Shown: piece after piece, positions 1,259-36,861 of the stretch
How positions within the stretch are numbered: the first letter of the stretch is position 1
Layout of the letters: each line of letters opens with the position of its first letter
Assembly: GCA_963763745.1 (NCBI GenBank)
Contig: CAVXQJ010000001.1
Span: 66,431-130,430, forward strand
Length of the DNA: 64,000 nt
From: an uncultured delta proteobacterium
Lineage (GTDB): Bacteria > Myxococcota_A > Polyangia > Polyangiales > Polyangiaceae
Reading direction: 5' to 3'
Translations under genes and position numbers: made by a program
Notes under the pieces: generated by a model
Databases searched by the model: none
What the model was told of the DNA's origin: nothing
Seen by the model: only the letters and a program-made list of their open reading frames with translations

Positions 1259-1270
1259 GAATCCACACTA

Positions 1271-2640: not shown

Positions 2641-2649
2641 TTCGCCACG

Positions 2650-3316: not shown

Positions 3317-3331
3317 CGGGAGGCCGCCGCC

Positions 3332-5800: not shown

Positions 5801-5822
5801 CGTCGCGCTCATCGCGTTCGGC

Positions 5823-6487
5823 ATGCGCATCCGGCCGCTCAAAGGGCGGAGCGAAAAGTGGCATTACGCGAAGGTGCTCTTCATCGCGTACGCGATTTGG
5901 TTCGCGTCGTTCGAGATCGTCGGGCCGCTACGCCGCGACGCTCCACACCGTGGATCTCTCGAGCGCGTGGGATCGCGCGACGCCGGTCATACCCGCGTTC
6001 GTTTGGCCTTACGAGGCGTGTTACGTGCTCCCGCTCTTTTCGCTCGTCGTGATGAAGGATTGGAATCGCTTCAACATCGCGCTCGTCGCGTTCGTCGTCG
6101 CGAACCTCACGGCGTTCGTCGTCTACTTGAGCGTGCCCATCGCGTATGCGCGCCCCGAGCTCGGGTCGAGCCTCGCCGAGCGAGTCCTTGTCGATGGAGT
6201 ACGCGGCGGATTTCCATCCCGGAGCCAACAAGCTGCCGAGCATGCACGTCGCAATGAGCTGGATCATGCTCTGCGCGATGTGGCGCCAGTCGAAGCGTCG
6301 CATCGTCGACCTCGGGCTCGCCGCGCTCGTCGTGCTCATCTCGGTCGCGGCCGTCTTCGTGAAGCAGCACTTGATCATCGACGTCGCCGTCGGCGTGCCG
6401 TGGGGGCTCGCGTCGTATTGGCTCGCGAAGCGAATCTACGATTGGCGGATCAACGCAGGACTGACTGGAACGGATCGAGTCTTGTGA
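5823..6487 (+). CDS. PAP2-family (type 2 phosphatidic acid phosphatase-like) membrane phosphatase; two frameshifts
   Basis: Three consecutive plus-strand ORF fragments (5823.., 5950.., 6146..) each carry TM helices. The last contains PSMHVAMSW and KQHLIIDVAVG, matching PAP2 motifs 2 and 3 (PSGH; SRxxxxxHxxxD). Confidence 0.65.
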
Positions 6488-6685
6488 GGCCGTGGCTTTC
6501 GACAGGCAGCAGCGAGACTGCGCGGCCGGGCCGCAGTTGGACCTTCGCCAGTCGACTTTGGCGGCCAAAGCCTGGCGTCCTCGAAGTCTGGTGAATGTCC
6601 TGCGCCGGCCTCGCCGGTTCTTCACGCTGCCGCACGTTGACGTCCGAGCTTGGACGAGACAATCAGTTCGAGTGATCTTCGGAGC

Positions 6686-9992
<3,307 letters not shown>

Positions 9993-10003
9993 AATCAGAA
10001 GAA

Positions 10004-10066
10004 ATTGACAGGGAGAGGGGGAGGTTGGGAGAAAGTTTTTTTTAGAAAAATCTCCCATTCTCCCTC
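10004..10066 (+). terminator. GC-rich/poly-purine element with T8 run between dnaK and the next gene (possible terminator or other structured element)
   Basis: gggagagggggaggttgggagaaagTTTTTTTTagaaaaatctcccattctccctcgctccc. GGGAGA/TCTCCC form a short inverted repeat around an unusual (for 70% GC DNA) T8/A5 tract. Confidence 0.2.
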
Positions 10067-10090
10067 GCTCCCTGTTCACTTCTTCTTCTG

Positions 10091-11131
10091 GTGGTTCGAA
10101 AAGTCGTAGTCGTCGCCAATGTGGTGGCGGTCGCTGGGTTCGCGGCGATCCTTGCGCATGGTGGCGTCACGCCGAAGCTGTATGGGTGGGATCTCGAGAT
10201 CGTGCGCGCGGGATCGCGCGCGATCTTCGCGGGGGCGGATCCGTATGCGCAATTGTTCGCGGATGATCACGCGGCGCTCGCGCGGTTTCCGTTTGCGTAT
10301 CCGCCCATCGTCGCAGTGGACGTCGCGCCGCTCGTCGCGCTTCCGAATCTCGTCGCGCTCGCGCTCCTCTGCGCGTTCGGCGCGGTGGTGCTCGCGCTCT
10401 CGGCGAAGAAGCGCGCGCTCTGGGTGACGGCGACGTTCCCCGGGCTCGCCGCGATGTTCGCTGGGCAGCTCGTGTGGATCGCGATCGCGGTGTTCGCGGG
10501 GGCGCATGCGCTCTTGAAGCGCGATCGTGCGTTCGCCGCGGGTCTCGCTTGTTCGCTCCTCGCGTTCAAACCGACGCTGCTCGTGCTCGTGCCGTTCGCG
10601 CTCCTCGTGATGCCGTCGCGCGTTCGCTCGCTCGGAGGTCTGCTCGCGGGTCTCGCCGCGCAAATCGCGCTGTGCTTCGCGATCGCACCGGGCGCGCTGC
10701 GCGCGTATCCGCGCGCGGCGTCCGACTTCTCGAAGTACGTCGCCGAGCATCCCGGTCTCTTCGACAGCGTCACGTGGCGCTCCACGTTCTCGAGCGACGC
10801 GCTCGGCGCGATCGCGATCGCAGCGTGCGGCATCACGGCGTGCGCGTGGATGTGGCGCGAGCGGCGCGATCTCGACGTGGTGATGTCGACGTGCGTGATG
10901 GGAACGCTCGCGTGCGCATGGCACTGTCTGCCGTACGACTACGCGCTCCTCGTTTTGCCGTTCGTGTGGCTCGAACTGCGCGCGCCGCGCGTTGCCGCCG
11001 CGCTCGCTGCGTCGTCGTGGCTCGTCCTCTTGCCGAAGAGCGCACACTACGTCGTCCTCGCGCTCTATCCCGTCGCGCTCGTCGTTCTCGGCGTTTGGAT
11101 GATGCGCCGCGTGGTAGCGTCGAGGCGATGA
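10091..11131 (+). CDS. Integral membrane glycosyltransferase-like protein, DUF2029/GT87 family (GT-C fold)
   Basis: Multi-pass membrane protein containing the PFAYPP motif (ARFPFAYPPIVAV) characteristic of DUF2029/GT87 mannosyltransferase-like proteins; about ten hydrophobic helices. Confidence 0.55.
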   Translation: MVRKVVVVANVVAVAGFAAILAHGGVTPKLYGWDLEIVRAGSRAIFAGADPYAQLFADDHAALARFPFAYPPIVAVDVAPLVALPNLVALALLCAFGAVVLALSAKKRALWVTATFPGLAAMFAGQLVWIAIAVFAGAHALLKRDRAFAAGLACSLLAFKPTLLVLVPFALLVMPSRVRSLGGLLAGLAAQIALCFAIAPGALRAYPRAASDFSKYVAEHPGLFDSVTWRSTFSSDALGAIAIAACGITACAWMWRERRDLDVVMSTCVMGTLACAWHCLPYDYALLVLPFVWLELRAPRVAAALAASSWLVLLPKSAHYVVLALYPVALVVLGVWMMRRVVASRR

Positions 11132-12679
11132 CGGACGCGCGTCCGCTCAAGTGGGGTTTCATCGCGAGCGCGGCGGTGGCTGCGTGCGTGATCCTCATCG
11201 CGCCATGGCGCCTCTTGCCAACGGACGCGTGGCTCGCGCTCGTGTGCGGCCGCGAAATCGCGCATCACGGTCTCCCACACGTCGACACGCTCGGTGTCGT
11301 GACGGCGGGTCACGTGTGGACGGATCAGCAGTGGCTCGGCCAGCTCTTCGTCTACGAAGTGGAGCACGCGTTCGGGCTTCGCAGCGCGCTCGTCGTGTAT
11401 GCGATCGTCACGGCGTGCGCGTTCGGAATTTGCGCGCGCTATGCGCTCGCGCGCGGCGCGACTCCCGCGGCGACGCTCGTGTGCAGCATCGCGGGCTTCG
11501 GTCTCGGCGCGACGTTCTTCACGCTGCGCCCGCAAATGTTTTCCATTCTCGGCTTCGCGATTCTGCTCGAGCTCCTCGGTCGTGACGTGCGCGAGCCATC
11601 TTCTCGACGGGGGCTCGGCCCCCGAGCCCCCGAAGAAGGCTCGGCCCGCTCCGCTTCGCTCCTCGGTCCTCGACGCGTCTGGTGGGTCCTTCCCGTTCTC
11701 GCGATTTCGGGCGAACCTCCATGGCGTCGTCGTCGTCGGCGCGATGCTCGTCGGCTTGCGCGCGCTCTTCGACGTATTCCAGAAACGCTTCGTGCGCGGC
11801 ATCGCGCTCGGTGGGCTCGCCGCGCTCACGCCGTTCGCGACGCCGTACGCGCTCGAGCTCCCGCGCTACTTCCGCGAGATCGGTCACCTCCAAGATCCCG
11901 TGCGCCAGCTCCCGATCTTCGAGTGGAACCGCGTCGAGTTCCCGTCGGATTGGCCGTTCTTCTCCATCTTCGCTGCGATGCTCGTGCTCCTCGTCGTCGT
12001 GTACTGGAAGAAGTTGGGAACGCGCGGCCAGGACCGCGCTTCCCAGCAAGAGTCGCTGAACCGTGCCGGCGGCACGCTTCAGCTCGCGCGTCCCGTGCCG
12101 TTCGAGACGGTGGTGATCGCGATCATGGGGCTCGCGGCGTGGCAGGCGAGCCGGCACTTGCAGTGGTTCGGTCTCGCGGTTGCCGCGTACGCACCTGTCG
12201 CGCTCGATGCGCTCCCGCCGGTGCGCGAAGGACACGTCCTCGCGCGCGTCGCGTCGCTCGCGCGTATCGTCGCGCCGATCGCGTTCCTAGGTCTCGTCGT
12301 GCGTCTCTATGCGATGAAAGACACGACGCTCCAGCGCGAATATCCGCTCGCGGTGCTTCCGGTGATTTCGCGCGCGATGGCCGAGCACCCCGAGACACAC
12401 GTTGCGGCGAGCGACCTCTACGCCGACTGGCTCCTCTGGTACGCGCCCGAAGTCGCAGGACGCATCGAGTGGGACGTGCGCTTCGAGCTCCTCGACGACG
12501 CGCAAGCGCGCGCGATGGGAATTTTTCTCTACACGCGCCCCGGCTGGGAGTCGCTCTATCCCGATGCGCGCATCGTCCTCGTGGCGCACAAGGCGCACAA
12601 GACGCTCAACGAGCACCTCGCTGCGTCGCACGCGCAAGTCTTATGGGAGAACGACTTCGCGCGCCTCTATTTGCGGTAG
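11128..12679 (+). CDS. Large polytopic membrane protein (possible second GT-C-type glycosyltransferase/accessory protein), frameshift around 11580-11700
   Basis: ATG overlaps the previous stop (ATGA). N-terminal half has TM helices (ORF 10474 frame from 11128). C-terminal half continues in ORF 11399..12679 with further helices and a soluble C-terminal domain. No specific family recognised. Confidence 0.45.
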
Positions 12680-12749
12680 CAGCGCTTCGTGGCGCGATTT
12701 TGTCAGCCGATGCACCTCCGCGAGCGTCGGTGTATGGTGAGCCCTTCAC

Positions 12750-12823
12750 GCGCCACTAGCTCAGTTGGATAGAGCGACGGCCTCCGGAGCCGTAGGTCAG
12801 AGGTTCGAATCCTCTGTGGCGCG
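12750..12823 (+). tRNA. tRNA-Arg (anticodon CCG)
   Basis: Cloverleaf: acceptor GCGCCAC/GTGGCGC, D-arm TAGCTCAGTTGGATAGAGC, anticodon stem ACGGC/GCCGT with loop CTCCGGA (anticodon CCG), T-arm CAGAGGTTCGAATCCTCTG, discriminator G. Followed by CCC (CCA not encoded). Confidence 0.9.
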
Positions 12824-12929
12824 CCCCGAAAAACACCGGCGATCCGTGATCTGCGAAATCGGCGTGGCAGTTTCGTGGAAGTTGCACAGAGCTTGCTGCA
12901 AGCGCTCGCAGAGGCGTGGACGAGGATCT

Positions 12930-13547
12930 TCAGCGCAAACCGAGAACGTTCCAAGCGAACACTGCGCCACGTTGGTGTATGGGATGGATGAGACCGTCGA
13001 ACGCGGCGACCTCTCTCGCTCCGAGTTGAACGACGCGATTCGCGAGCAATTCGAACGCGTCGATGACGAGAGCCATCGGAAAATCGACGAAGTCCCAAGC
13101 GTAGATCAGGATCGCTCGTTTCTTCGCAGTCGTGAACGACACGATCTTCGAACAGTCAGTAAGGGCGCTGTGTTGGCTCGGGTGCCCATGGCCTCCAGTG
13201 TACGGCGAGAGGATCTTGCTCACGTCGTCGCGACCAATTGCCGGCTGACCGTTGTCGCCGAGCATACGAAGCGCCTTGACCTCGATCGCCCACTCGATCG
13301 TCGGATCTCCAAAGCAGAGATCGCAATCACGATCGCCACTCGGATACGCGACCTCGAATCGATGCTTCGCGTACGTCGCATCCGTGTGAGCCATCTCCTT
13401 AATAACCAACCGAATGAGGTCCTTCTCGTCATGCGGTCCAAGCCCTGGCTGCCATCGCTTCGAGCGCGGCCGAGCGGCATCGGCTCGAACCATAGCGGCG
13501 GCAAAGTCTCGGACGATGCTTCCGAGTTCGATCGTCATGCTCATTCC
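12930..13547 (-). CDS. Hypothetical protein with PD-(D/E)xK nuclease-like motif, translationally coupled to the giant helicase-nuclease gene
   Basis: ATG 13547 preceded by GGAG, 9 nt after the upstream stop. Sequence ...YPSGDRDCDLCFGDPTIEWAIEVKALR has the D...(D/E)-x-K arrangement of restriction-endonuclease-like folds. Lower GC than the flanking chromosome. Confidence 0.5.
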   Translation of the reverse strand, partial: GMSMTIELGSIVRDFAAAMVRADAARPRSKRWQPGLGPHDEKDLIRLVIKEMAHTDATYAKHRFEVAYPSGDRDCDLCFGDPTIEWAIEVKALRMLGDNGQPAIGRDDVSKILSPYTGGHGHPSQHSALTDCSKIVSFTTAKKRAILIYAWDFVDFPMALVIDAFELLANRVVQLGAREVAAFDGLIHPIHQRGAVFAWNVLGLR

Positions 13548-13555
13548 TGCTCCAA

Positions 13556-16500
13556 CTACGACCACATCTTCCAGAGATTCTCCGGCAACGGCTGCTCGAG
13601 CTCGAAGCGAACGCGCATCGGTTCTTCGCCCTCGTGGCTTCGATACTTCACCGTCCCGAGGTACGTGAAGTCCTGATGCGAGTCGTATTGCACGAAGAGA
13701 TGAACTGTTCGTCGCTCCGTCGCATGGCCGACGATCCGGCGGCCCTTGAGGGACTTGAGTTTTGTGGATGCTTGGGACTCCCATTGCAGCTCGGTTCGCG
13801 ACAGGAATCGATCGGCATATCGATGCTCCACTTTCTTTTGGTCGCCCTTACGAAGCGTGACCATCAAAATGGTGTGTGGTGCTCCCATCACGTCGATGTC
13901 GCGGTGACCAACACGCCACGATGGATCGTTCTTGCTGCCAAACGCCTTTGCGATCGCATCGCGGTCGTACTCGCCCCACAGCACGAGACCACGCACCCGC
14001 TCGACGACTTCGATCACTCTCGCGACTGGTTCGAGACGTGCGGTTAGTGGGAGCTTCTGTGGCGCGACATTCGGGTTCCAGCTCTCGAGCGCCCAACCGT
14101 CATGCGTTCGCCGCGGCACCTTCATCACGGCGAAGGTCGTGTCGGCCTCGTCGTGACCGACGAGCAGAAACGGTTTGCCTTCGACGGTCTCTGGCGCGAC
14201 GCCATGCGCCCACTCGCAAAGCACGAGGCTCCCATCGACGATCGGCGTGTTGCCGCCATTCATAGAGTCGCCGCTCGCCGTTACGACGAAGTGTCTCTTC
14301 GGATCCAAAGTGACTGTTGCTTGGACGCCGATCTGCTCTGGCGGAGCTTCGTTTTGCTGGACCGGATCGAACGTGCCGCAAGCCGCTTTGACGTCCGGAT
14401 AGAACGGCAACTGCGGAAACGGAATCACGTCCGCTGCGTGCGTTGTCACGGGCTCAGACAACGGCGCCAAGTGCCATCCATCTTCGGTCTTCGTCAGCTG
14501 AACGTAGTGTCGAATCCCAGGCTGACCGGTGCTCGGTCCGAGCAATCGACGGAGCAAATCGGGAAGCGCATTTCCCGGTGTGGTCTCGCGCGTCGCGACG
14601 TTGACCGCGATCTTCTGGAACGAGAAGGTGTAGGGCTCGCCGTTCACATCGACGAGCGTGTCCCCCACCGGAATGTCCGAGCGGCGTGTTCGATCGAAAC
14701 GCAAGATCGGTCGGTGACTCGCATGCGACACAGCTAGGACGATCGGCGCCTGGCTCGCATCGATGGTCGACTTCCTCAACAAGCGATCACGGTGTTGTTT
14801 GAGCCGAAGCTCAACGAGCTCCGCCGTCATCGCTTCGAAGATCGCCTCGTCTTCTGCGGCGACCATGAACGTCGGAGCGAACCGATCACCATCGATCCTA
14901 AACCACTTCGTCGACGTCGACTCGCCGCGTGCCCACACCATGAGCGGCATGTCGCGCCAACTTCTGACGAACGCGGTGTCCATCTTTCTACGGTCTTCGT
15001 CTTCGCGCATCTCTCGAGCGAACAAGAGATCCGCTGTCACAGCATCGAACGCGTGTCTCGCGTTCTCTGCGATCTCCATGCCCGTGAAGAGCGCGCCGAC
15101 GTCGATGAGCGCTTGCAACGCGAGCATCTTGTACGCCTTGCTCATCGACGTTCGAAGCAGATCGCCGAACCATGCAGGGTGCCGCTCGAGCGCACGTTGT
15201 TCGTCCCCGCTCAGATCACCTTGCGCCTTCACGAAGTGAAACCACGACTCGTAGGCGTCCTTGATGTGCGCGAAGGTGACACCCGCCGCGAACAATTCGG
15301 CCGCGCTCGGTCGACGCCCGTTCGCGTCGCGAAAGCTCACATACTCGTAGACGAGGATGTCGGAAGGGCGAGCGCGGACCATCGCTTGAAGCAGATTGAT
15401 CGCCGCGAGCTCGATGTCGATCGAGCAGCCGTCGGGAAGACTGAGCGCGTGATCGCGGATCTTGTCGAGAGCGACCTGCGCCGGAAGATCTTGTCCGAGC
15501 AGAAAGAGTAGCGACTGGGGCTTCGTCAGAAAGCTCCGATGATTGCCGATGAAGTCGACGACGACGAGCGCGGTCTTCCCATCGGCGAGTCGGAGACCAC
15601 GCCCCAGTTGCTGAAGGAAGATCACGGGTGACTCGGTTGGCCGCAGCATGAGCACGTTGTTCACTTGGGGGACGTCGAGGCCCTCGTTGAAGACGTCTAC
15701 TGCGCACACAATCTCGAGCGCGCCGCTCGCGAGATCGCGCAGGCACGTCGCGCGAGGCGCCGACGTTGGTTCGCTGTGTACGGCTTGCGCGGTCTTTCCG
15801 TGCCGACGAAAGAACGCAGCCATGTAGTCCGCATGCTCGACCGTGCAGCAAAAGCACAGCGTGCGCCTCGTACCTGCGCCCGCGTGCTTCTCGTATTCGG
15901 CGAGCGCGAGCGCCGCACGCTCTTCCGTTGCAACCGCGGTCGTGAGCGCCGTCGCGTCGAACTTCCCGAACGCCACGGGATGGGTTCGAAGTCGACGCTG
16001 TCCTTAACACCGAAGTAGTGAAATGGGACGAGGAGCCGTTGGCTAATGCCGTGAACCAAATCACGCCGATAGACGAGGTTGTCTCCGCATAAGTCTAGAA
16101 GTGAACGCCCATCCATGCGCTCCGGAGTCGCAGTGAGCGCGAGGAGGAAGCGCGGTCGAAAGTGTGCGAGCAGTTTTCGATACGTCGATGCGGCGGCGTG
16201 ATGAAACTCGTCGATGACGACGTAGTCGAAGCGCTCGGGCGCGAACTGCGAGAGGTGACTCGCGCGCGACAGTGTCTGCACGGATGCGAACAGCAGATCG
16301 ACATCGCGATCGTGGAGGCCACCTTGATACGTACCGACGACCTTGTCGGGAAAAACCTTCTGCCAATTGTCCTTGGCCTGACCCAAGATCTCTTCGCGGT
16401 GCGCGATGAAGAGAACGCGTTCGCTTCCCATCGCCTTCGCGTCGAACGCTGCAAGCAGCGTCTTGCCGACGCCGGTAGCGAGCACGACGAGACCTTTGGT

Positions 16501-17541
16501 GTGCCCGTCGCGTCGCGTCTTCTTCAACGCGTCGAGCGCCTCGAGCTGGATCGCGTTCGGGGTGGGCGCAGGCACGCGTGGCTCGGGCGTCGGCGGGAGC
16601 GGGATTGGAGCGCGCGCTTCATACGCATCGACGAGCGCGCGCGTCAGCGGCTTCGTTCGAGGACTCGCGAGCAGCGCCTCGAAGCGACGCGCGATTGCAT
16701 CGAAGGTTGCCGCGTCATCAGAGGAGATGAGTCGAAGATTCCACTCGACGGCTTCTTGCAACGCCGAACGACTGAGGTTGCTGCTGCCGACATAAGCGAC
16801 GCCGTACTCTCCGCGGAAAAAAATGTAGCTCTTCGGATGAAACGACGTGCCGTTCTCCGTCTCGTAGAAGAACGGCGAGAAATTCGGATGCTCGTCCGCG
16901 AGACGGAGGAGTTTGCGTAACGCGTCGGCGCTCGAGATGCCGAGGTAGTCACCAGCTAGTAAACGAACGCGGGTGCCGCGGCGGAGCGCATCGTCGAGAT
17001 CATGAAACACGAGGTCGACGCCCGAATTCATCAAGAACGCGGAGACCATGTCGGCGCGTTCGGCTATCTGCAAAGCGTTGCGCAGTGCGTGCTCGAAATG
17101 GCGATCGTCGCCATGCACGAACGACGGCAGCGAGGCGAACGAGTCTCCTTTCGCGGGCGTGAGCGACAAATATTTCTGCTTGCTCGGAATGACGCCGCGC
17201 ACGCCGCCGCGAGGATCGTCCATGTCACCGCGAAAGCGTGGGATGACGTGCACGTGCAGGTGCATGACGGTTTGGCCGGCTGCTTCACCAGCGTTGAAGC
17301 CAACGTTGTAGCCATGCGGAGAGAGCTCCTTGTCGAGCGCCCGCTTGACGTCGTCGACGAGGGCGAAGATCGCGCTGCGTTCAGCGAGCGTGGCTTCGAA
17401 CCACGTGGCGATAAGACGCTTCGGGATCACGAGCGTGTGGCCTGCGCTGACGGGAAAGCGATCGCGCAAAGCGAACGCGAGTTTGTTGAAGCCGACCCAC
17501 TCGCTCGGCGGGACGAGAAGAAACGGTGATGACTTCGTCAT
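13556..17541 (-). CDS. Giant multidomain protein (~1330 aa): HIT domain, PLD-family (HKD) nuclease, SF2 ResIII-type helicase, S24/LexA-like peptidase fold, C-terminal uncharacterized domain; one frameshift near 15975
   Basis: - HIT: HLHVHVIPR histidine triad.
- PLD: FHPKSYIFF...GSSNLS HKD motif.
- Helicase: VLATGVGKT (motif I), DEFHH (II), LTATP (III), FHYFG; after the frame change Helicase_C motifs FNEGLDVPQV and QQLGRGLR.
- S24-like: VVTASGDSMNGG...IVDGSLVL...VMKV. C-terminal ~180 aa unassigned.
- Lower-GC codon usage than neighbours. Confidence 0.8.
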
Positions 17542-17694
17542 CGGGAGCCATCACGGGCGCGAGCGGTCATGAAAGCGTGAGGATACCCAGTCATGTAGAT
17601 GACGAACGTCTCGTCTTCGGGTCGGAGAAAACTCCCATGTTGGGGAAACCGATCAAAGCTCTAGAAATCGCGAAAATAAACGGTGTTGTTTGGG

Positions 17695-17735
17695 GTGCGA
17701 CAGAGGATTCGAACCTCTGAGGGCGATCCTGCCCG
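17695..17735 (-). other. Partial tRNA 3' end (T-arm plus acceptor-like tail, CCA encoded) in inverted orientation relative to tRNA-Arg; likely island boundary remnant
   Basis: Minus strand reads TCAGAGGTTCGAATCCTCTGTCGCACCCCA. The 21 nt TCAGAGGTTCGAATCCTCTGT are identical to 12799-12819 of tRNA-Arg. No matching 5' acceptor/D/anticodon arms upstream, so not a complete tRNA. Confidence 0.55.
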
Positions 17736-17739
17736 CGTG

Positions 17740-18102
17740 TCAGCGGCAACTCCCGGTGGTGGCGCCGCCGTCATCGCTCACGAGCGTGCAGGTCGTCGGG
17801 CAGCCGCCGCAGTCCGCGCGAGAATCCGAGCACTCGTACGCGCCGACATTCGGCGCGGCGCAGAACGCTGGAACGCAGCTCGTGATTGCGCAGGTCCAAT
17901 CGCTCCACCCTCCATCGGCACCGCACGCGCGTGTTCGTCGACCGCACGATTCGATCGGTCCTGCGCACTCGACAGCGCCGGCCTCGCACGGCTCGCTGCC
18001 GAGCGCAGCATCGCGAGCATCGCCGGCGTCGGCATCCGGCGAAGCCACCTCGCCACCGCATGCCGTCGCCAACACGAACATTCCCACGAGTGATCGTTGC
18101 AT
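17740..18102 (-). CDS. Small secreted cysteine-rich protein (120 aa, 11 Cys), hypothetical
   Basis: N-terminal signal-like MQRSLVGMFVLATACGG, then Cys-rich acidic sequence (CEAGAVECAGPIESCG...CSDSRADCGGCPTTC). A second Cys-rich ORF fragment lies at 18263..18466 on the same strand. Low certainty because of GC-driven open frames. Confidence 0.3.
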   Translation of the reverse strand: MQRSLVGMFVLATACGGEVASPDADAGDARDAALGSEPCEAGAVECAGPIESCGRRTRACGADGGWSDWTCAITSCVPAFCAAPNVGAYECSDSRADCGGCPTTCTLVSDDGGATTGSCR

Positions 18103-18510
18103 TGTGCACCCTCTCTCTGATCACCTCGCAATTGCACGGGGTATGCCGTGTCGAGATTCGCGTCGTTCGCTCAGAGCGATGCGCCGGCACGTGAATCGCG
18201 TTGCACGCGTGTGTTTCGACGTGCTCATCGCGAACCTGCCGCAAGCGGTGGCGCTGAAACGGTCAGGGGCACACTTGGCAGGCCACGTGTCCAGATGCGA
18301 TCAACACACAGCTTGCGTCGCGACCACAAAGCGCGCGACACGTTTCGGGCAGTCCCGACATGCCGCTCGCGTACGGCGGACCGCCCTCGAATCGGCAGCC
18401 CGGATTGTCCTGCATGTCGAAGAGGGCGCCGTAGGAGGTGCATGCGGTGCCAGCGTCCTCGATCACCGCAGCAGTGCACGCGTCGTTACAGCCGAGGAGC
18501 GCGGCGAGAC

Positions 18511-18626
18511 CCGTACCACGGCGATTCCGAAATGGGCTATCGCGTGAACCTCGGCTGCGTCATCGGACTCGACGTGCTCGCGCTCGAGATTGGAGTCATC
18601 GACGGACGCTCGATGCCAGTCGCCGA
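18511..18626 (+). repeat. 116-nt direct repeat, copy 1 (115/116 identical to 41292..41407); overlaps the 3' end of Kelch paralog 1
   Basis: cgtaccacggcgattccgaaatgggctatcgcgtgaacctcggctgcgtcatcggactcgacgtgctcgcgctcgagattggagtcatcgacggacgctcgatgccagtc[g/a]ccgac occurs twice in the same orientation. Contains internal inverted repeats (CATCGAcggacgcTCGATG; CTCGAcgtgctcgcgcTCGAG). Confidence 0.85.
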
Positions 18627-21013
18627 CGGCACGGACGTCTTCTAGCGCCGAGCAACATCAAGGTCACCAAGGTCCATGCGCCACCATCGGAACGACTGCC
18701 CGTAGCCATCGAGCACCCCGAGCTGTTGTTCGCCAGCGTGCGACAGATGCCAGTCGAGTCGCATACCGCCGGCGAAACACAATCACTCACGGAAGCGCAT
18801 TTGTCTTTGCAAGCTCCGTTCGTGTCGCATTTGAACGGCGTGCAATCTTGTGAAGCGCCTGCATCGTTCGACGCCGTGTACTCATTGATGCACCCGCCGC
18901 CAACGACACACGCGCCGTTTTCACACACGTATCCAGAGGCACAGTCGACGTTCAACGTGCATGTGGTCTTGCACGCTGTCGGCCCAGCACACGCAAAGTG
19001 ATTTGGACATCCCGTCGCGACTCCGGTCGCGCAGTGGCCCTGTCCGTCGCAGGTATTGCTGCTCTCGGTTGCGTTCGAGCACGAGCTTCCACATGGCGTG
19101 CCGGATGTCGTGTATGTGCATTGCAATGGATCATTTTGCGCGCACGACCCGCCGCACGTCGTTCCGCTACCTGCGCAGGGAGCGCGCACTCCATGAGGCA
19201 CGCCCGTGATCGGCGTGCACGTACCCATCGATGTGGTTACGTCACACGCCTCGCATTGCCCGGTGCATTGGGTGTTGCAGCACACGCCATCGACGCAAAA
19301 CGAGCCGTTGGTGCACTCCGCATCGCTGCCACACTGACCGCCTTGAGTCTGGTCACTGAAGATCAGCGCGGTCGTCAATGACTGATAGATGTATTGTGAG
19401 AGTTGCGTCGAGCCACCCGCGACGAGGACATTGCCCGTTGCAAGCGATGTCGCGGTTTGCTGGCTCGCATTGGCCGGAAGTGGCGACATCGTGCTGAACG
19501 TTCCAGCAGCCGGGTCGTACAACTCGGTCGTGATGAGATAGCCGTTCGCGATCGTGTAGCCGCCGCTGACGATCACTTTCCCGGACGAAAGCAATCCCGC
19601 GACCGCCTGGGAACGCGCGCTCGTCATCGAGCCGGTTGGCGCAAACGTACCCAAGCTTGGGTCGTAAAGCTCGGCGGTCGTGTCCGACGTGCCACCGGCG
19701 ATAAGCACTTTACCCGATTGGAGCCGTGTTGCGGTGTGCATCGAGCGGCCCTCTGACATCGCACCGCTCGTTGCGAACGTACCGAGTGATGGGTCGTAGA
19801 CCTCGCTCACCGCAGAAGAAGAACCACCCGCGACCAGCACCTTGCCGTTTGCGAGAAGCGTTGCAGTTTGACCCAAGCGAGCAACGTTGGCCGACCCGGT
19901 CGCTGCGAACGTGCCTTGATTGGGATCGTAGAGCTCCGCCGTCGTGCTGTTGTTCGTTCCCCCAACGATGAGGACCTTGCCGGTGCTGAGCGTCATCGCA
20001 CTCGGTTGATAACGTCCTACGACAAGGTCTCCCGTTGATGTAAACGTGCCGGCGACGGGATCAAAAAGGAGAGCGGTCGTCACTCCACCGACGACAAGCA
20101 CTTTGCCCGAGGGAAGGAGTGCGGCCGCAACTGCTGTACGATTGTCGGGCATCGAACCCGTCGTGGCGAAGGTTCCGCTCACGGGATCGTAAATTTCAGC
20201 GGTGGCATTTCCGCCGGAAACGACGACGACGCGACCGTTTTGAAGAAGAGCAGCGGCATGTCCGTAACGCGCAAACGTCATTCCACCGGTAGCGCTCCAC
20301 AGAGGGTCGAGCACTGCTGGATAGCGGACCGAGCTCCACGTGAGATGAAGTTGACACGTTGACGACGCCGGTGGCGTTGGAGCGCGATCCCACGGCGGCG
20401 TCGCTGACTCGTCGAAGGCACAACCCGTCAAAGACGCTCGCGCAGTCGTCTTCGCGCCATCAGCACTCAGCACGAAAGGGGCCGCAACGCGGAGTCGCGG
20501 CGCTCCGTGCGCATCCAAAAGCTCGAGCGTGTTCGAAACGAGCCGGAGCCCGGAGACCCGCGAGACGTCGATGTCATAGACGACCTCCTCGCGCTCTGGC
20601 TTGGACTCGAACAACACATCGTCCTCGGTGCCGTCTGGCCGAGCGTGGTGAACCACGTCAGCACCGTGCAGTGCTCGGCGATAGATCACGACGTCATGGA
20701 AAACCTGCGCAGTGGAATCGGACGCGTCGTGCAGCGCAAATTCGATTGCGACGTTCGATGTCGCGTCCTCGACCAGCGCGTTCGAGCGCGCGTCGTGTGG
20801 CAGTGCGACGATTGTTTGGGGGACGCCGCGCGATTCGTCCGCGGTAATCCGCAAGCGCTCTCCATCATCGACGAAGCCCAACGACGATGTCGCGCTCCAA
20901 CCCAACCTCGCGCGAAGAGCGGAGACATTCGTGACGCCGCCGTCGACGTCAATCGATGCGTCATGACCGCATGCGAAGAGCGCGACGACGACAAGAACGG
21001 CGTTACGCGACAT
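18596..21013 (-). CDS. Secreted Kelch-repeat beta-propeller protein with C-terminal Cys-rich module and MYXO-CTERM sorting tag (paralog 1 of 7)
   Basis: - Start MSRNAVLVVVALFACG (signal).
- Conserved N-domain (GTEDDVLF...PRLRVAAPFV...YPAVLDPLWS).
- ~8 repeats of GKVLVxGG...AELYDPxxGTFxxTGSM (Kelch-like).
- Cys-rich block CVDGVCCNTQCTGQCEACDV...DCTPFKCD.
- C-terminal GCSMATGSRSDGGAWTLVTLMLLGARRR (Gly-Cys, TM, Arg tail). Confidence 0.75.
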   Translation of the reverse strand: MSRNAVLVVVALFACGHDASIDVDGGVTNVSALRARLGWSATSSLGFVDDGERLRITADESRGVPQTIVALPHDARSNALVEDATSNVAIEFALHDASDSTAQVFHDVVIYRRALHGADVVHHARPDGTEDDVLFESKPEREEVVYDIDVSRVSGLRLVSNTLELLDAHGAPRLRVAAPFVLSADGAKTTARASLTGCAFDESATPPWDRAPTPPASSTCQLHLTWSSVRYPAVLDPLWSATGGMTFARYGHAAALLQNGRVVVVSGGNATAEIYDPVSGTFATTGSMPDNRTAVAAALLPSGKVLVVGGVTTALLFDPVAGTFTSTGDLVVGRYQPSAMTLSTGKVLIVGGTNNSTTAELYDPNQGTFAATGSANVARLGQTATLLANGKVLVAGGSSSAVSEVYDPSLGTFATSGAMSEGRSMHTATRLQSGKVLIAGGTSDTTAELYDPSLGTFAPTGSMTSARSQAVAGLLSSGKVIVSGGYTIANGYLITTELYDPAAGTFSTMSPLPANASQQTATSLATGNVLVAGGSTQLSQYIYQSLTTALIFSDQTQGGQCGSDAECTNGSFCVDGVCCNTQCTGQCEACDVTTSMGTCTPITGVPHGVRAPCAGSGTTCGGSCAQNDPLQCTYTTSGTPCGSSCSNATESSNTCDGQGHCATGVATGCPNHFACAGPTACKTTCTLNVDCASGYVCENGACVVGGGCINEYTASNDAGASQDCTPFKCDTNGACKDKCASVSDCVSPAVCDSTGICRTLANNSSGCSMATGSRSDGGAWTLVTLMLLGARRRPCRRRLASSVRR

Positions 21014-23549
21014 CGGCACGCACTCGTTTCCTGCGGAGACCGATGACGAGGCCGAGAACAGCGAGACCGATCGCGGCGTCCGGCGGACCGTCGGATGCTG
21101 CACACCCACCGCCGTCTCCATTCGTGGGCGGCACGCAATTCCCTGCGGTGTTGCAGATGTTCGGCGAGACGCAATCGTTAACCGACTGACACGTTGTCTT
21201 GCAAGCGCCCGAACCTTGGTCGCACTCGTAGGGCGTACAATCTTGTGCGGGCCCGGTCGGACCCTGCGAGGTGTGATCGCCCGAGCAAACTGCGCTCGTG
21301 CTTGGTGTGCAAGCGCCACCCGAGCAGGTGAAGCCTACAACGCAGTCGGTCTTTGCGACGCAAGTCGTCTTGCACGTGTTTGCGTCTGCGCACGTCAAGC
21401 TGCCAGTGCATTGATGCGGCGGAGCGACGATACAAGCCCCTTGCCCGTCGCACAGGCTATCCGTTTCGGTGGCGTTGGCGCACGTGCTTCCGCAAAGCGT
21501 CGTCGCGGGTGGATAGGTGCAGGCCGTCATGCTCAGCGTCGTGCATGAAAGGCCACAAACACCGCCAGCGTCCGCGCCGCAGCTCGGACGCGTGCCATGT
21601 GGCGCTCCTTGAACTTGGGTGCAGGTACCAAGTGATCCTTGCACGTCGCACGCTTCACATTGTCCCGTGCAGGTCGATTTGCAACATACGCCATCCACGC
21701 ACGCGAGCCCCGTGGCGCAATCGTTCGTTACATTACATACGTCGCCGGCACCGGATATCGCGAGGATCTCCGCGGCAGCATAGCCGCCCGAAAACTGATA
21801 CGTGTACGATGCGCCTCCCGTGACGAGTATTCTTCCAGGCGCAAATAGCGTTGCGGTGTGCCCACCGCGACCGAGGTTCATGGACACCGTTGCGCCGAAG
21901 GTGTTGTTCGACGCGTTGTAGATCTCCGCGCTTGCGACCGAGTTGGCGTCGACCGCGGCGACTCCACCCGTCACGACGACGTCTCCCGAGGCCAGCAGCG
22001 TGGCCCCTGCAAATCCGCGAGCAAGCGCCATGGGGTTCGTTGCGGAGAACGTGGCGTTCACGGGATCGTAGAGCTCCGCGCTCGTGAGGTCGGCACCGAC
22101 GGTCTGCGTCGATCCGCCGGCGACGAGTACCTTGCCGTTCGACAGCACGACACCGATGTGATCGCCCCGGGCGGTCGCGAGCGATCCCGTTGGTGCGAAG
22201 CTCGTCGTGTAGAGCTCCGCGCTCGTGAGCGCGCTGCCTCCGGAGAATCCACCGGCGATCAGCAAACCCGTAGTGACGATTGATGCCGTGTGATCGGAGC
22301 GCGCGGTTCCGAGCGAGCCTGCGTTCGAGAACGTCCCGGCCGTTGGATCGTAGAGCTCGCAACTGGTGAGTTGCCCGCCGCCATTTTTGGCTCCGCCGAC
22401 GACGAGCACTTTGTTGGACGCGAGCATCGTCGCGGTATGTCGTGAGCGCGCCGTTGCTAACGAGCCAGTCGATGAAAATGTGCCGCTGTTGGGATCGTAC
22501 GTGTCCGCGCTTGCGCTCAGGGTTCCACCGCCGTTGTCACCACCCACGACGAGCACTTTCCCCGTCGCAAGAAGCGTCGCTGTATGGGCTATACGCGGTG
22601 TCGTCATCGATCCCGTTGCTGCAAACGTTGTCGTCTGCGGATCAAAGAGCTCCGCATTCGCGAGCCCATCACCTCCCGCGATGAGCACCTTTCCGGACGC
22701 GAGCAATGTCGCCGTGTGCAACATGCGCGGAGTCGTCAATGAATTCGTCGTGGTCCACTGTGGGTCGAGCAACGCCGGATATTGCACGTCGTGCCACGTC
22801 ACGTGAATTTCGCAGACGCCCGCTCCAGGCTCGGTGACCGGGCGGCCCCATGGAGGCAGCGGATTGTCGTCGTATGCGCATCCAGCAACGTGCGTCGAGG
22901 CCGACGTCACGACACCATGCTCGTCTACGAGTCTTGGTGGCGACATCCGCAAACGCGGTGTGCCGCTCGCATCGACGAGCTCGAGGACGTTACCGACGAG
23001 CCTCACTCCGCGAACGTGTGAAACGTCTAGGTGATAGACGACCTCTTCGCGCTCGGGCGCAAAGTCGAAAGCGATGAAGTCTTCGACGCCCTCAGCGTGC
23101 ACGCGTTCGACGAGATCAAAACCCGCAAACGCGGAAGGGTAGATCGCAATCCCGCCCGCAACTGCGATTGGCGTCGGCGCGGTGTGGTCGAGCGTGAGCT
23201 CGACTTGGATCTTCGACAGTGGGTCTTGTAAGCGCACGGCGCCATTCGCCCGGAGCGGCAGCTGCACTGCGCCTGCGTGCGGCGAGCTTCGTTCAGCGGG
23301 AATGATCGGGATCGCCGTCGAACCGAGCTCGAAGCGCGTCGCGACGCTTTGGCCGAGAATCGGAGTGCGCTCGAAGTTTGCACCGTGAGTTGCGTATGCG
23401 AAGCGCTGGCGGATCTCGCCGATTCGCACGGCCGCTTCCGCGGGCTTCGCAGGGGTATTCGAAACACCAGACGAGACCTCGCTGCAACCCCAAGGCCCCG
23501 CGATGAATGCGGCGGCGATCGCGTAACAAGCACACCGAACTACGTTCAC
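21003..23549 (-). CDS. Secreted Kelch-repeat / Cys-rich / MYXO-CTERM protein (paralog 2)
   Basis: Probable GTG start (VNVVRCACYAIAAAFIAGPWGCS signal). Same N-domain (GVEDFIAFDFAPEREEVVYHLDVSHVRGVRLVGNVLELVDASGTPRLRMSPPRLVD). Kelch-like repeats (GKVLVVGG...ELYDPxxGTF). Cys-rich block CVDGVCCKSTCTGQCEACDV. C-terminal GGCAASDGPPDAAIGLAVLGLVIGLRRKR. Confidence 0.75.
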   Translation of the reverse strand: MNVVRCACYAIAAAFIAGPWGCSEVSSGVSNTPAKPAEAAVRIGEIRQRFAYATHGANFERTPILGQSVATRFELGSTAIPIIPAERSSPHAGAVQLPLRANGAVRLQDPLSKIQVELTLDHTAPTPIAVAGGIAIYPSAFAGFDLVERVHAEGVEDFIAFDFAPEREEVVYHLDVSHVRGVRLVGNVLELVDASGTPRLRMSPPRLVDEHGVVTSASTHVAGCAYDDNPLPPWGRPVTEPGAGVCEIHVTWHDVQYPALLDPQWTTTNSLTTPRMLHTATLLASGKVLIAGGDGLANAELFDPQTTTFAATGSMTTPRIAHTATLLATGKVLVVGGDNGGGTLSASADTYDPNSGTFSSTGSLATARSRHTATMLASNKVLVVGGAKNGGGQLTSCELYDPTAGTFSNAGSLGTARSDHTASIVTTGLLIAGGFSGGSALTSAELYTTSFAPTGSLATARGDHIGVVLSNGKVLVAGGSTQTVGADLTSAELYDPVNATFSATNPMALARGFAGATLLASGDVVVTGGVAAVDANSVASAEIYNASNNTFGATVSMNLGRGGHTATLFAPGRILVTGGASYTYQFSGGYAAAEILAISGAGDVCNVTNDCATGLACVDGVCCKSTCTGQCEACDVQGSLGTCTQVQGAPHGTRPSCGADAGGVCGLSCTTLSMTACTYPPATTLCGSTCANATETDSLCDGQGACIVAPPHQCTGSLTCADANTCKTTCVAKTDCVVGFTCSGGACTPSTSAVCSGDHTSQGPTGPAQDCTPYECDQGSGACKTTCQSVNDCVSPNICNTAGNCVPPTNGDGGGCAASDGPPDAAIGLAVLGLVIGLRRKRVRADVA

Positions 23550-23661
23550 CAACCCCTCCGTTTCCGTTCGATTCCATCTTGGGAGGTCGATCGACGCAAG
23601 GAAAAAGGTGCCTCGTCCGCCGCCTATTGCCGCCGCCAAGCACCGCTGGCAGAGTAGCGTG

Positions 23662-24705
23662 ATGGATCGCGATCTCGAACGCGCGCAGTTGCGAGTCGGC
23701 GCATCCTTGCGCGGAAAATACCTACTCCAACGTGTGCTGGGCGTGGGTGCGATGGCAGCGGTCTACGAGGCGACGCACCGAAACGGAACGCGCGTCGCGG
23801 TCAAAGTGCTTCACACCGAGGTCGCTGCGATCCCCGACATCAAGAAGCGTTTCCAGCGCGAGGGGTACATCGCGAATCGCATCGAGCATCCGAGCGTCGT
23901 CCGCATCACCGACGACGACGAGGATGTCGACGGAACGGTCTTCGTCGTGATGGAGCTTCTGCAAGGCCACACGCTCGAGACCGAGCTGAAAACGTGTGGC
24001 GGTCGGCTTCCTCCGTCGCGGGTCATCGCGATGGGTGATGCCGTGCTCGACGCGCTCGAAGTGGCTCACGCAGCAGGCGTCATTCATCGCGACATCAAAC
24101 CCGACAACGTGTTTCTCACGCTCGGTGGAATCAAGATCCTCGATTTCGGAATCGCGCGCTTGATGGACATCTCCAGCGTCACGAAGAGCGGGCAGATGAT
24201 GGGCACTCCGGAGTTCGTTGCGCCGGAGCAAGCGGGTGGACGCATTCACGAAATCGACGGCCGCACCGATCTCTTCTCCGTCGGTGCGATGATGTTCACG
24301 ATGCTGACGGGAGACTTCGTGCAGCACGCGCGCACGCCAATCGAATACATGGTCTTCGCCGCGACGAAACCCGCACCGCCCATTCGCTCCGTCATGCCCG
24401 AGCTCGACCGCAGCTTGGCCGAGGTCATCGACGTTGCACTGGCGTTCGAAAAAGAAAAACGCTGGGCTTCCGCACGTCAAATGCAAGCAGCGTTGCGAGG
24501 CGCATCCTTTGGGTTGGAGGAGACCGTGGCAACGACGGGAGCCTACGAGCGATTGCAAGCGATGCGCGCTGGGCGGGAGAGGCGAACCACCGACCCGATG
24601 CCGCCACGAGCGAATCAGCAGAGACTGCCTGAGGTGTCGAGCACGCGCACTGTTCCGATGATGAGTCCTGCGTCTGAGCAGCCTATTCCGTTGAAGCGGA
24701 AATAG
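23662..24705 (+). CDS. Ser/Thr protein kinase (Hanks-type), divergent from paralog 2 and upstream of paralog 3
   Basis: Glycine loop GVGAMAAVYEA, VAVK, HRDIKPDN catalytic loop, DFG, GTPEFVAPE activation segment. ~348 aa, no TM. Confidence 0.85.
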   Translation: MDRDLERAQLRVGASLRGKYLLQRVLGVGAMAAVYEATHRNGTRVAVKVLHTEVAAIPDIKKRFQREGYIANRIEHPSVVRITDDDEDVDGTVFVVMELLQGHTLETELKTCGGRLPPSRVIAMGDAVLDALEVAHAAGVIHRDIKPDNVFLTLGGIKILDFGIARLMDISSVTKSGQMMGTPEFVAPEQAGGRIHEIDGRTDLFSVGAMMFTMLTGDFVQHARTPIEYMVFAATKPAPPIRSVMPELDRSLAEVIDVALAFEKEKRWASARQMQAALRGASFGLEETVATTGAYERLQAMRAGRERRTTDPMPPRANQQRLPEVSSTRTVPMMSPASEQPIPLKRK

Positions 24706-24773
24706 ACGAAACAATAACAACTAACTCCGCTCGTCGCGTTCTCGAGTCGCGCGCGGACAACAGAAGGGGGTGC

Positions 24774-32555: not shown

Positions 32556-32567
32556 TTTCCCCCCAAA

Positions 32568-35920: not shown

Positions 35921-36030
35921 GTGGGGTTAGCCATTCGAGCATACACGCTTGCCGCGTCGAAGGAATGGCCGACCGTTGACACCGTGTGCGTTGACCTGAG
36001 AAGCTGCGATTCGAAGAGGGAGGCGGGGAG

Positions 36031-36860: not shown

Positions 36861-36861
36861 A

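Follow-up and report, generated by a model that had tools for sequence, protein, structure and literature searches.

A predicted SauUSI-family Type IV restriction enzyme with added HIT and LexA/UmuD-like S24 domains in a variable segment beside a tRNA-Arg gene

SauUSI from Staphylococcus aureus cuts methylated foreign DNA and works as a single polypeptide by a mechanism that has been published (PMC7913695). In this 953-aa protein (PDB 7CLG), an N-terminal single-HKD PLD domain is followed by an SF2 ATPase and a C-terminal DUF3427/SRA-like domain, and no DNA methyltransferase adjoins it. DUF3427 also acts as reader of modified cytosine in the restriction enzymes McaZI and YenY4I, which restrict T4gt (Lutz et al. 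2019, PMC6765204). These two have neither a helicase motor nor a PLD nuclease; instead, a PD-(D/E)xK nuclease is fused to the reader.

We analysed a DNA stretch of 64,000 nt (the window) from an uncultured delta proteobacterium, in which two genes on the minus strand occupy 4.9 kb next to a tRNA-Arg(CCG) gene (Table 1). Judged from its sequence, the product of the larger gene is a SauUSI-family Type IV modification-dependent restriction enzyme. It displays the order of domains known from SauUSI and likewise has no adjoining DNA methyltransferase, but differs in length (1328 aa), in an additional N-terminal HIT domain and in the spacing between motor and recognition domain, which amounts to about 510 residues compared to about 230 in SauUSI and is filled by a middle region of a different type and an S24 domain resembling those of LexA and UmuD. 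With a probability of about 0.7, the product of the large gene is an ATP-dependent SauUSI-type Type IV enzyme that consists of one polypeptide and is extended by HIT and S24 modules, the second gene is unrelated to it and the frameshift in the large gene is an artefact.

Table 1. Features of the tRNA-Arg-flanked segment (window coordinates; aa numbering of the repaired large protein).
Feature	Position	Strand	Evidence
tRNA-Arg(CCG)	12749..12826	+	ARAGORN; Rfam tRNA 68.6 bits
Inverted repeat, left arm (T-arm and 3' acceptor strand of tRNA-Arg)	12797..12825	+	repeat search
Gene 2, 204-aa protein of uncharacterised family, candidate PD-(D/E)xK nuclease	12930..13544	-	ORF; motif; AF2
3' part of the large gene, behind the frameshift (Helicase_C, middle region, S24 and DUF3427; aa 527-1328)	13556..15964	-	ORFs; repair; Pfam
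DUF3427/SRA-like target-recognition domain, aa 1184-1325	13568..13993	-	DUF3427 1e-21
LexA/UmuD-like S24 domain, aa 1052-1177	14012..14389	-	Pfam Peptidase_S24
Middle region, aa 675-1045: helical part with winged-helix-like elements, then beta-rich subdomain	14408..15520	-	
SF2 helicase-like ATPase (ResIII and Helicase_C), aa 328-652	15587..16560	-	Pfam; SauUSI alignment
5' part of the large gene, ahead of the frameshift (HIT, PLD and ResIII; aa 1-526)	15964..17541	-	ORFs; repair
PLD-family single-HKD nuclease domain, aa 158-283	16693..17070	-	Pfam PLDc_2 2e-7; aligned to SauUSI nuclease domain
HIT domain, aa 12-104	17230..17508	-	Pfam HIT 1e-22
Inverted repeat, right arm (degenerate copy of the 3' end of tRNA-Arg)	17692..17720	-	repeat search

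In the window sequence the large gene is split into a 614-aa ORF (15697-17541) and an 806-aa ORF (13556-15976), in line with the sequence-only reading, which had described an ORF of about 1330 aa broken by one frameshift. The break corresponds to one base missing in the run TCGGGAAG at 15964, and both possible repairs lead to the sequence ...IPWRSG-KFDATAL... and a protein of 1328 aa. A decaying pseudogene with a real frameshift and no current function is an unlikely explanation. Such decay would fit the premature end of the protein behind the ResIII domain caused by the 1-nt deletion, and the exact repaired 1328-aa sequence was not found in the protein collection. In contrast, the ORF is otherwise unbroken with every catalytic motif intact, the deletion falls into a short homopolymer context, and the orthologue in the sister assembly L085, presumably a long-read assembly given its 'contig_' naming, is in three pieces. 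Furthermore, at this locus a Logan assembly of run ERR11594405 contains an unbroken gene of 1328 aa, followed by an identical gene 2, and the frameshift is thus probably an assembly error.

All six domains of the repaired protein were detected by Pfam, which confirmed the proposed HIT, PLD, helicase (ResIII aa 328-475, 1e-36; Helicase_C aa 558-652, 2e-12) and S24 domains. The C-terminus of about 180 aa, initially left unassigned, turned out to be the DUF3427/SRA-like recognition domain of SauUSI. A comparison with PDB structures matched SauUSI (7clg) with E=2.5e-92 over aa 156-674 and in a second stretch over aa 1184-1302, and PADLOC assigned the protein to mREase_IV (9.4e-113 and 3e-92). The core consisting of PLD nuclease, SF2 motor and DUF3427/SRA domain is therefore already known as SauUSI and does not represent an undescribed defence system, and the suggested likeness to Mokosh and DISARM came down to weak matches of the PLD domain (MkoB 5.8e-6, DrmC 3.7e-6). 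Catalytic residues were invariant or nearly so in 41 aligned homologues of 41-80% identity. The PLD residues H235, K237 and G252-S-S-N255 (16777-16839) and the helicase motifs ATGVGKT (Walker A), DEFHH and QQLGRGLR were invariant. The middle region takes the position of the SauUSI coupler domain without sequence similarity to it; an AF2 model of aa 675-1328 reached a pLDDT of 83.6.

The HIT motif HLHVHVI is located at 17242-17262. H94 is invariant and H96 and H98 are kept in at least 90% of the 41 sequences. PDB matches of this domain were Ap4A phosphorylase and Fhit, and PADLOC reported a ThsC match (3.8e-10). ThsC, an accessory of the Thoeris type II defence system, likewise belongs to the HIT family and has been hypothesised to process a nucleotide signal (PMC8565338); the similarity is confined to the domain level, as Thoeris is a different system without helicase or nuclease. 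In a survey of accessory modules at 80 genome loci, HIT was fused to the helicase protein in 15, and a further 10 had it in an ORF of its own next to the gene. In about 18 loci a SAM-methyltransferase-like module was adjacent, and in about 25 it was fused N-terminally; Pfam confirmed the methyltransferase domain in all nine examples scanned. One locus (L015) contained a confirmed NUDIX domain, and about 11 had adjacent PRA-PH/MazG-like ORFs with weak Pfam support. This helicase paralogue is thus recurrently tied to small-molecule enzymes, a linkage that looks new. HIT may be an accessory for nucleotide processing or sensing, but any single functional reading is weakened because the accessories are enzymatically mixed, with a hydrolase in some relatives and a methyltransferase in others.

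The S24 domain exceeded the Pfam cut-off (1.7e-6; 28.1 bits versus 23.3). Its putative cleavage site lies between C1055 and G1056 (A1054-C1055-G1056, 14375-14383), the GDSM motif with S1093 at 14261-14272 and K1141 at 14120-14122. A1054, C1055, G1056, G1091, S1093, M1094 and K1141 are invariant or nearly so in the 41 homologues. The window clade and a proteobacterial clade exhibit the C-G cleavage dipeptide of UmuD type, the Sorangium/Planctomycetota clade the A-G dipeptide of LexA type. As in LexA and UmuD, the dipeptide precedes the serine by about 37 residues, and the putative catalytic lysine is one residue off LexA K156 in naive alignments. In LexA, UmuD and lambda cI the S24 domain is joined to a DNA-binding repressor domain, whereas here it is embedded in a 1328-aa nuclease-helicase, and the predicted cleavage would split the enzyme from its own target-recognition domain. 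We propose that the module self-cleaves between C1055 and G1056, probably stimulated by RecA-ssDNA filaments. This role cannot be universal, since the S24 domain forms the C-terminal end of some relatives and is missing from others.

HIT and PLD superfamilies both contain DNA-end-cleaning enzymes, and LexA and UmuD, with their S24 domains, are part of the SOS response. The large protein might accordingly process or repair damaged DNA rather than act in defence: an aprataxin-like HIT domain would clean 5'-AMP ends, a Tdp1-like PLD domain strip end adducts and a base-flipping SRA domain read lesions, combined with a RadD-like helicase and a UmuD-like, SOS-controlled module. RadD was indeed the best NCBIfam match (3.6e-33, far below the cut-off) and was matched in the PDB (3.9e-26). 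However, the similarity to SauUSI is far stronger and covers nuclease, motor and recognition domains, and the HIT domain matched the Fhit/Ap4A-phosphorylase branch with no aprataxin among the PDB matches. The patchy distribution, movement between contexts and variable locus also argue against repair, as do Firmicutes relatives adjoining canonical SauUSI-type genes and the HNH, Fic, HipA or DUF4007 genes near some relatives. We regard a repair function as very unlikely.

Over 100 protein clusters from Myxococcota, Planctomycetota and mycobacteria, at 41-80% identity, showed the complete HIT-PLD-helicase-S24-DUF3427 layout, and databases annotate them only as "DUF3427 domain-containing protein". 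Our literature search found no paper describing HIT or S24 fused to SauUSI-family enzymes, in line with the earlier suspicion that these fusions would be new; the architecture is not rare. Besides the linkage to small-molecule enzymes, the LexA/UmuD-like domain with its conserved cleavage site, Ser and Lys is what looks novel. Homologues at L081 and L085 showed 74% and 86% identity, respectively. The L085 gene is 81% identical at the nucleotide level; this similarity is confined to the gene body (13560-17513 of the window), and the flanks are unrelated.

Gene 2 had been described as a 205-aa gene starting 9 nt downstream. A close gene on the same strand does exist, but it encodes 204 aa, or 202 aa if translation begins at the second ATG, and starts 11 nt (or 17 nt) past the large-gene stop, preceded by GGAG. 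Across 54 homologues, D75, E88 and K90 show little or no variation, and the AF2 model (pLDDT 93.5) displays an alpha-beta-beta-beta-alpha-beta core. Motif (D...ExK) and topology agree with the proposed PD-(D/E)xK nuclease, whereas structural comparison gave no significant match, and Pfam, PADLOC and NCBIfam gave no match. A genuine two-gene defence system in which the helicase-nuclease depends on this protein as its effector or partner would be consistent with the spacing, strand and GGAG, with the adjacency of the pair in the independent Logan assembly, with the conserved residues and with one homologue located in an integrase-bearing island together with other nucleases. Yet no gene 2 homologue occurred within 10 kb of the large-gene relatives in the 80 genome loci, L081 or L085, five gene 2 homologues examined resided in unrelated contexts without a SauUSI-like neighbour, defence databases gave no match, and SauUSI itself acts as one polypeptide (PMC7913695). 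We therefore consider such a system very unlikely, and the idea of two coupled genes is not borne out by conservation. Gene 2 probably shares a transcript with the large gene, but its distribution is independent of it; it may encode a small nuclease and lies outside any conserved system. Unlike in McaZI and YenY4I, the putative PD-(D/E)xK protein here comes from a gene of its own that is not linked to the DUF3427 reader.

The segment is flanked by the tRNA-Arg gene and an inverted copy of its 3' end, both of which had been noticed beforehand. The repeat has an exact core of 21 nt, is 90% complementary over 29 nt, leaves 4866 nt between its arms and reaches into the trailer of the tRNA by about 4 nt. 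Its right arm had no Rfam match and was not called by ARAGORN at default settings; it is not a tRNA gene. A relative, L086, is syntenic with the window up to position 12829 and diverges exactly at the tRNA 3' end, where the variable segment begins on its left side. A low-GC islet had been postulated, and the dip is real (0.604 across 12827-17690 versus 0.668 upstream) but not unique, as the following 22 kb (18.6-41 kb) have a GC content of 0.617 and a similarly low GC3. The large gene is best read as defence cargo in this tRNA-flanked variable segment, in line with the tRNA-linked spot suggested earlier.

By homology to SauUSI, two chains would dimerise via their single-HKD PLD domains to form one composite nuclease site. 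In foreign DNA the DUF3427/SRA-like domain would read a modified base, most likely a cytosine, and thereby turn on the SF2 motor, which would translocate on the DNA so that the PLD site cuts away from the recognition site. For the added modules we infer that the Fhit-like HIT hydrolase may process or sense nucleotides, in a position held by other small-molecule enzymes in relatives, most often by a SAM-methyltransferase, and that S24 self-cleavage, probably stimulated by RecA-ssDNA, would detach the recognition domain upon damage to the cell's own DNA as a built-in 'restriction alleviation' switch. An analogous precedent is EcoKI, a translocating restriction enzyme shut off when the cell's own DNA is targeted or damaged, by ClpXP proteolysis of HsdR (PMC11109961). 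There ClpXP acts in trans on a Type I enzyme, whereas the protease proposed here would act in cis. If the predicted S24 cleavage holds true, this would be a restriction enzyme with its own shut-off switch during host DNA damage.

The large gene is interrupted by one change of reading frame, which lies within the run TCGGGAAG at 15964. Addition of either one G or one A at this position gave the same junction (...IPWRSG-KFDATAL...), in agreement with the family consensus IPWRSGRFD, and a protein of 1328 aa. In a Logan assembly of run ERR11594405, a contig of 4852 bp carries a gene for 1328 aa in which Pfam detected the same domains, and the protein encoded after it is identical to gene 2. Because an intact gene is present in this assembly, the frameshift is probably an assembly artefact. 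A real pseudogene in this genome, as might be suggested by the absence of the exact repaired 1328-aa sequence from the protein collection, is unlikely next to the intact Logan gene. The window copy is possibly a mis-assembled member of its family. The orthologue at L085, a homologue locus from a sister ENA assembly, is likewise fragmented and consists of three ORFs.

All four domains named in the sequence-only reading (HIT, PLD, SF2 helicase and S24) were recovered by Pfam in the repaired protein, while the C-terminus left unassigned there is a DUF3427 domain. With 9.4e-113 and 3e-92, PADLOC classified the protein as mREase_IV, a methyl-directed restriction enzyme of Type IV, and its best match among PDB sequences was SauUSI (7clg, E=2.5e-92). 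The alignment with SauUSI extends over the nuclease-motor part (aa 156-674) and, separately, over the recognition domain (aa 1184-1302 versus SauUSI 801-918). Residues H235, K237 and G252-S-S-N255 of the single HKD motif are invariant in the PLD domain, which aligns with the SauUSI nuclease. Motifs I, II and VI of the SF2 ATPase (GVGKT, DEFHH and QQLGRGLR) are intact and invariant, and a C-terminal DUF3427/SRA-like target-recognition domain is present. The region from aa 676 to 925 is helical in the AF2 model and has no sequence similarity to the SauUSI coupler; the whole stretch between motor and recognition domain is much larger than in SauUSI and includes extra domains. Furthermore, a cognate DNA methyltransferase is absent from the locus, as expected for a SauUSI-family Type IV enzyme; according to Pfam, PADLOC and NCBIfam, neither of the two genes in 12827-17690 encodes one. 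Judged by these alignments, the core of the large protein is a SauUSI-family Type IV restriction enzyme, and the HIT domain, the enlarged middle region and the S24 domain are additions to it.

[quoted passage not shown] Its SRA-like DUF3427 domain reads 5mC or 5hmC and turns on the ATPase, and the subsequent translocation leads to cutting at a distance, by which the DNA is shredded (PMC7913695; see also PMC3141236 and PMC6765204). The likeness to Mokosh and DISARM proposed earlier came down to weak matches of the PLD domain (around 1e-6). MkoA was not matched and MkoB matched only in the PLD domain with 5.8e-6, compared to 9e-113 for mREase_IV. The DrmC match of DISARM was likewise at PLD level (3.7e-6 in PADLOC, 0.022 in NCBIfam), and DrmA, DrmB and the methyltransferase gene are missing.

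The six-domain layout was recovered in over 100 protein clusters, whose members are about 1320-1360 aa long, at 41-80% identity. They were found in Myxococcota, Planctomycetota, Mycobacterium, Mycolicibacterium and many metagenomes, and are named 'DUF3427 domain-containing protein' at NCBI, while JGI lists the component COGs. Among 41 aligned members, the HIT histidines, the PLD residues H, K and GSSN, all helicase motifs and the S24 residues A1054-C1055-G1056, G1091, S1093, M1094 and K1141 are either invariant or at least 90% conserved. No publication was found in which a SauUSI or Type IV enzyme carries a fused HIT or S24 domain. An undescribed defence system had been proposed; its core is known, as it belongs to the SauUSI family (PADLOC mREase_IV), whereas the widespread clade with HIT and LexA/UmuD-like domains was not found described in the literature.

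Features of the islet and its surroundings (nucleotide positions in the window; aa, residues of the repaired protein)
Feature	Position	Strand	Support or value
761-aa arginine-rich ORF	10474-12759	plus	
tRNA-Arg(CCG)	12749-12826	plus	ARAGORN and Rfam
Repeat, left arm	12797-12825		
Gene 2, 204 aa	12930-13544	minus	
Large gene, first ORF	15697-17541	minus	
Large gene, second ORF	13556-15976	minus	
Repeat, right arm	17692-17720		
HIT	aa 12-104		Pfam 1e-22
PLDc_2	aa 158-283		Pfam 2e-7
ResIII	aa 328-475		Pfam 1e-36
Helicase_C	aa 558-652		Pfam 1.6e-12
Peptidase_S24	aa 1052-1177		Pfam 1.7e-6, above gathering score
DUF3427	aa 1184-1325		Pfam 1e-21
Upstream of tRNA-Arg			GC 0.668
Islet	12827-17690		GC 0.604
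Next 0.9 kb	17691-18595		GC 0.661
Following region	18.6-41 kb		GC 0.617, GC3 as low as islet
Kelch pair 1	18596-21334 / 21003-23762	minus	
Ser/Thr kinase	23527-24705		
SBBP beta-propeller protein	24678-27590		
Kelch pair 2	27727-30240 / 30087-32567	minus	
PEGA/TPR protein	32568-34274		
Ser/Thr kinase	34262-35926		
Kelch pair 3	36736-38958 / 38700-41150	plus	

Gene 2 starts 11 nt past the TAG stop codon of the large gene and is preceded by GGAG. It belongs to a family of about 1000 clusters at 50% identity, for which no Pfam, PADLOC or NCBIfam model was found. Across 54 members D75 never varies and conservation of E88 and K90 is at least 90%; in the AF2 model (pLDDT 93.5) these three residues would be carried by an alpha-beta-beta-beta-alpha-beta core. 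Gene 2 may on this basis encode a PD-(D/E)xK nuclease, for which a D...(D/E)xK motif on such a core is expected. The two genes had been taken as a coupled system. However, tblastn of 85 homologue loci revealed no gene 2 homologue near relatives of the large gene, so that gene 2 is a neighbour here and not a conserved partner. Five gene 2 homologues reside in unrelated contexts without a common partner, one of them in an integrase island and one next to a predicted PIN/Mut7-C-domain gene; a role as conserved partner was therefore ruled out. The gene 2 homologue at L088 lies in an integrase-bearing island (901-10362) with EcoRV-like endonuclease, reverse transcriptase, NOV_C and HSDR_N-like genes. 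The observations of the sequence-only reading (tRNA, repeat, domains and genes) were confirmed, and its interpretation holds in part: the islet codes for a SauUSI-family enzyme with an unrelated small neighbour gene rather than for a wholly undescribed two-gene system.

The tRNA-Arg(CCG) gene is the only tRNA gene in the window. To its right, 4.9 kb accommodate the large gene and gene 2, which are encoded on the minus strand; neither a third gene nor an integrase was found in 12827-17690. The 761-aa ORF running into the tRNA overlies a GT87-like gene and a 426-aa gene in another frame and is a spurious high-GC open frame. In GC content the islet lies below the upstream region, as had been noticed, but the 22 kb beyond it are similar in GC and GC3. 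Composition thus sets the left border only, and the GC dip was discarded as a mark of the right border.

The inverted tRNA copy at the end of the islet proved to be real. The tRNA-Arg-derived repeat matches exactly over 21 nt, extends to 29 nt at 90% and continues for about 4 nt into the tRNA-Arg trailer. Its arms are inverted, so that both tRNA-like 3′ ends face into the islet. The right arm was considered as a second tRNA gene; it had no Rfam match, only a relaxed ARAGORN run returned 'tRNA-???', and it was kept as a repeat. Both an integrase and direct tRNA 3′-end repeats, as in a tRNA-integrated island, are missing. Since att repeats made by integrases are direct, the inverted arms of the islet could instead have arisen through an inversion, through two events or as a recombination scar.

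Comparison with related loci showed that the gene behaves as single-gene cargo in a variable spot. The large protein and its L085 counterpart are 86% identical, and nucleotide identity (81%) is restricted to 13560-17513 with unrelated flanks. The surroundings of L085, the closest homologue with genomic context, are defence-island-like and include a WYL-type regulator (HTH_11/WCX; 14309-15331) and a HepT-like toxin gene (19399-19878). The syntenic locus L086 is collinear with window positions 1285-12829 including the tRNA (77-87% nucleotide identity) and then continues with unrelated, high-GC3 genes. This one syntenic relative thus lacks the islet at the same tRNA and shares nothing downstream, but it carries other genes there, and no empty tRNA-Arg site that would fix the right border was found. 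A tRNA lies within 1 kb in 4 of 60 homologue loci. Viral contigs held helicase-core relatives only and no member of the gene 2 family.

The roughly 0.9 kb that separate the repeat from the first Kelch gene contain no convincing ORF, with GC flat across codon positions, and a 120-aa minus-strand ORF in this interval had no Pfam match. The adjoining 18596-41150 region harbors three tandem pairs of 740-970-aa Kelch-repeat proteins. GC3 is 0.66-0.76 here compared to 0.80-0.86 in flanking core genes, and this stretch may represent a further variable or expanded-paralogue region, larger than the islet.

The HIT domain of the large protein is of the Fhit/Ap4A-phosphorylase type. It contains HLHVHVI in a HIT fold with conserved histidines, and PDB matches were Ap4A phosphorylase (9.6e-15) and Fhit (1.9e-10). 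Scanning of 80 genome loci with HMMs made from sub-alignments of the family revealed that the enzymes sharing the middle region form a paralogue clade apart from canonical SauUSI. In these loci the N-terminal or upstream position is taken by one of several modules. HIT is fused there in 15 loci and is a separate adjoining ORF in 10. A class-I SAM-methyltransferase-like module of about 200 aa, mostly in Proteobacteria, adjoins the enzyme in about 18 loci and is fused N-terminally in about 25; all nine scanned modules were confirmed by Pfam (Methyltransf_25/11/23 or TehB-like). A small PRA-PH/MazG-like ORF with weak Pfam support adjoins about 11 loci. The idea that a nucleotide hydrolase is always adjacent, with the neighbours read as NUDIX, was abandoned: Pfam returned mostly SAM-methyltransferase-like domains and confirmed NUDIX in one locus, L015. 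The mix of accessory enzymes points to a small-molecule or nucleotide-linked function, without specifying which one.

Among the proteobacterial loci L011-L060, those without HIT have the methyltransferase module in its place, fused or immediately upstream. Examples are L017 (9341-10000) and L015 (8979-9968, fused to NUDIX). The module does not resemble a standard DNA methyltransferase. In Firmicutes, a paralogue without its own DUF3427 adjoins a canonical PLD-helicase-DUF3427 gene. Seven Bacillota loci (L048, L066, L068, L069, L077, L078 and L079) show such PLD-helicase paralogues side by side, one canonical SauUSI-type with DUF3427 and one of the middle-region clade without it, adjoined by a small HIT ORF and/or a PRA-PH/MazG-like ORF. 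This suggests a multi-gene form of the single fused window protein. In the Planctomycetota MAG locus L004, a HIT-PLD-helicase-S24 gene without DUF3427 (6555-9767, minus strand) is divergent to a canonical PLD-helicase-DUF3427 gene (9851-14281, plus strand), with a tRNA-Asn some 500 bp downstream.

LexA and UmuD of E. coli served as references for an alignment of the S24 fold of the large protein. S1093 in the G-x-S-M motif aligns with LexA S119 and UmuD S60, and G1091, S1093 and M1094 are invariant. K1141 (at least 90% conserved) is one position off LexA K156 in the MAFFT and HMM alignments, and a one-residue shift restores the register. The A-C-G sequence falls on the scissile bonds Ala84-Gly85 of LexA and Cys24-Gly25 of UmuD. 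A1054 and C1055 are invariant, G1056 is at least 90% conserved, and the putative site is located 37 residues before S1093, as in LexA/UmuD. A sister clade (Sorangium, Planctomycetota, Polyangiaceae, Holophagales) has the dipeptide A-G instead of C-G, which are the LexA-type (Ala-Gly) and UmuD-type (Cys-Gly) variants of the cleavage site. From this sequence pattern the S24 module is probably a functional autoprotease.

Cleavage would part the HIT-PLD-helicase-middle region (1055 aa) from S24-DUF3427 (273 aa). An autoprotease sensing RecA-ssDNA filaments would cut between the motor-nuclease and the modified-base reader, and the cut would act in cis as an SOS-coupled on/off switch of the restriction enzyme. 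The N-terminal module (HIT, SAM-methyltransferase, NUDIX in one locus, possibly MazG-like) would tie restriction of modified DNA to the processing or sensing of a nucleotide, for example a phage-specific modified dNTP or an Ap4A-type alarmone. For both parts together, a RecA-ssDNA-triggered autoprotease switch and a coupling of restriction to nucleotide processing or sensing, we estimate a probability of roughly 0.3, so this reading is put forward tentatively. No paper describing such a self-cleaving module in a restriction enzyme was found, and the nearest functional precedent is the ClpXP-mediated restriction alleviation of EcoKI (PMC11109961).

The worth of these findings lies at the family level, in a likely autoproteolytic switch within a restriction enzyme and in a recurrent link to small-molecule enzymes. 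Type IV enzymes attack modified DNA and become harmful to the host once a foreign methyltransferase enters, and little is understood about what keeps them in check. If motor and reader are separated by a conserved self-cleaving module like that of LexA, this would represent a new regulatory principle, namely damage-tied autoproteolytic restriction alleviation. Moreover, the recurrence of small-molecule and nucleotide enzymes on this helicase paralogue suggests that nucleotide chemistry and restriction are linked in a way yet to be explored. The window copy is one member of a large family with more than 100 clusters including mycobacteria, and a result obtained with one member would therefore generalise.
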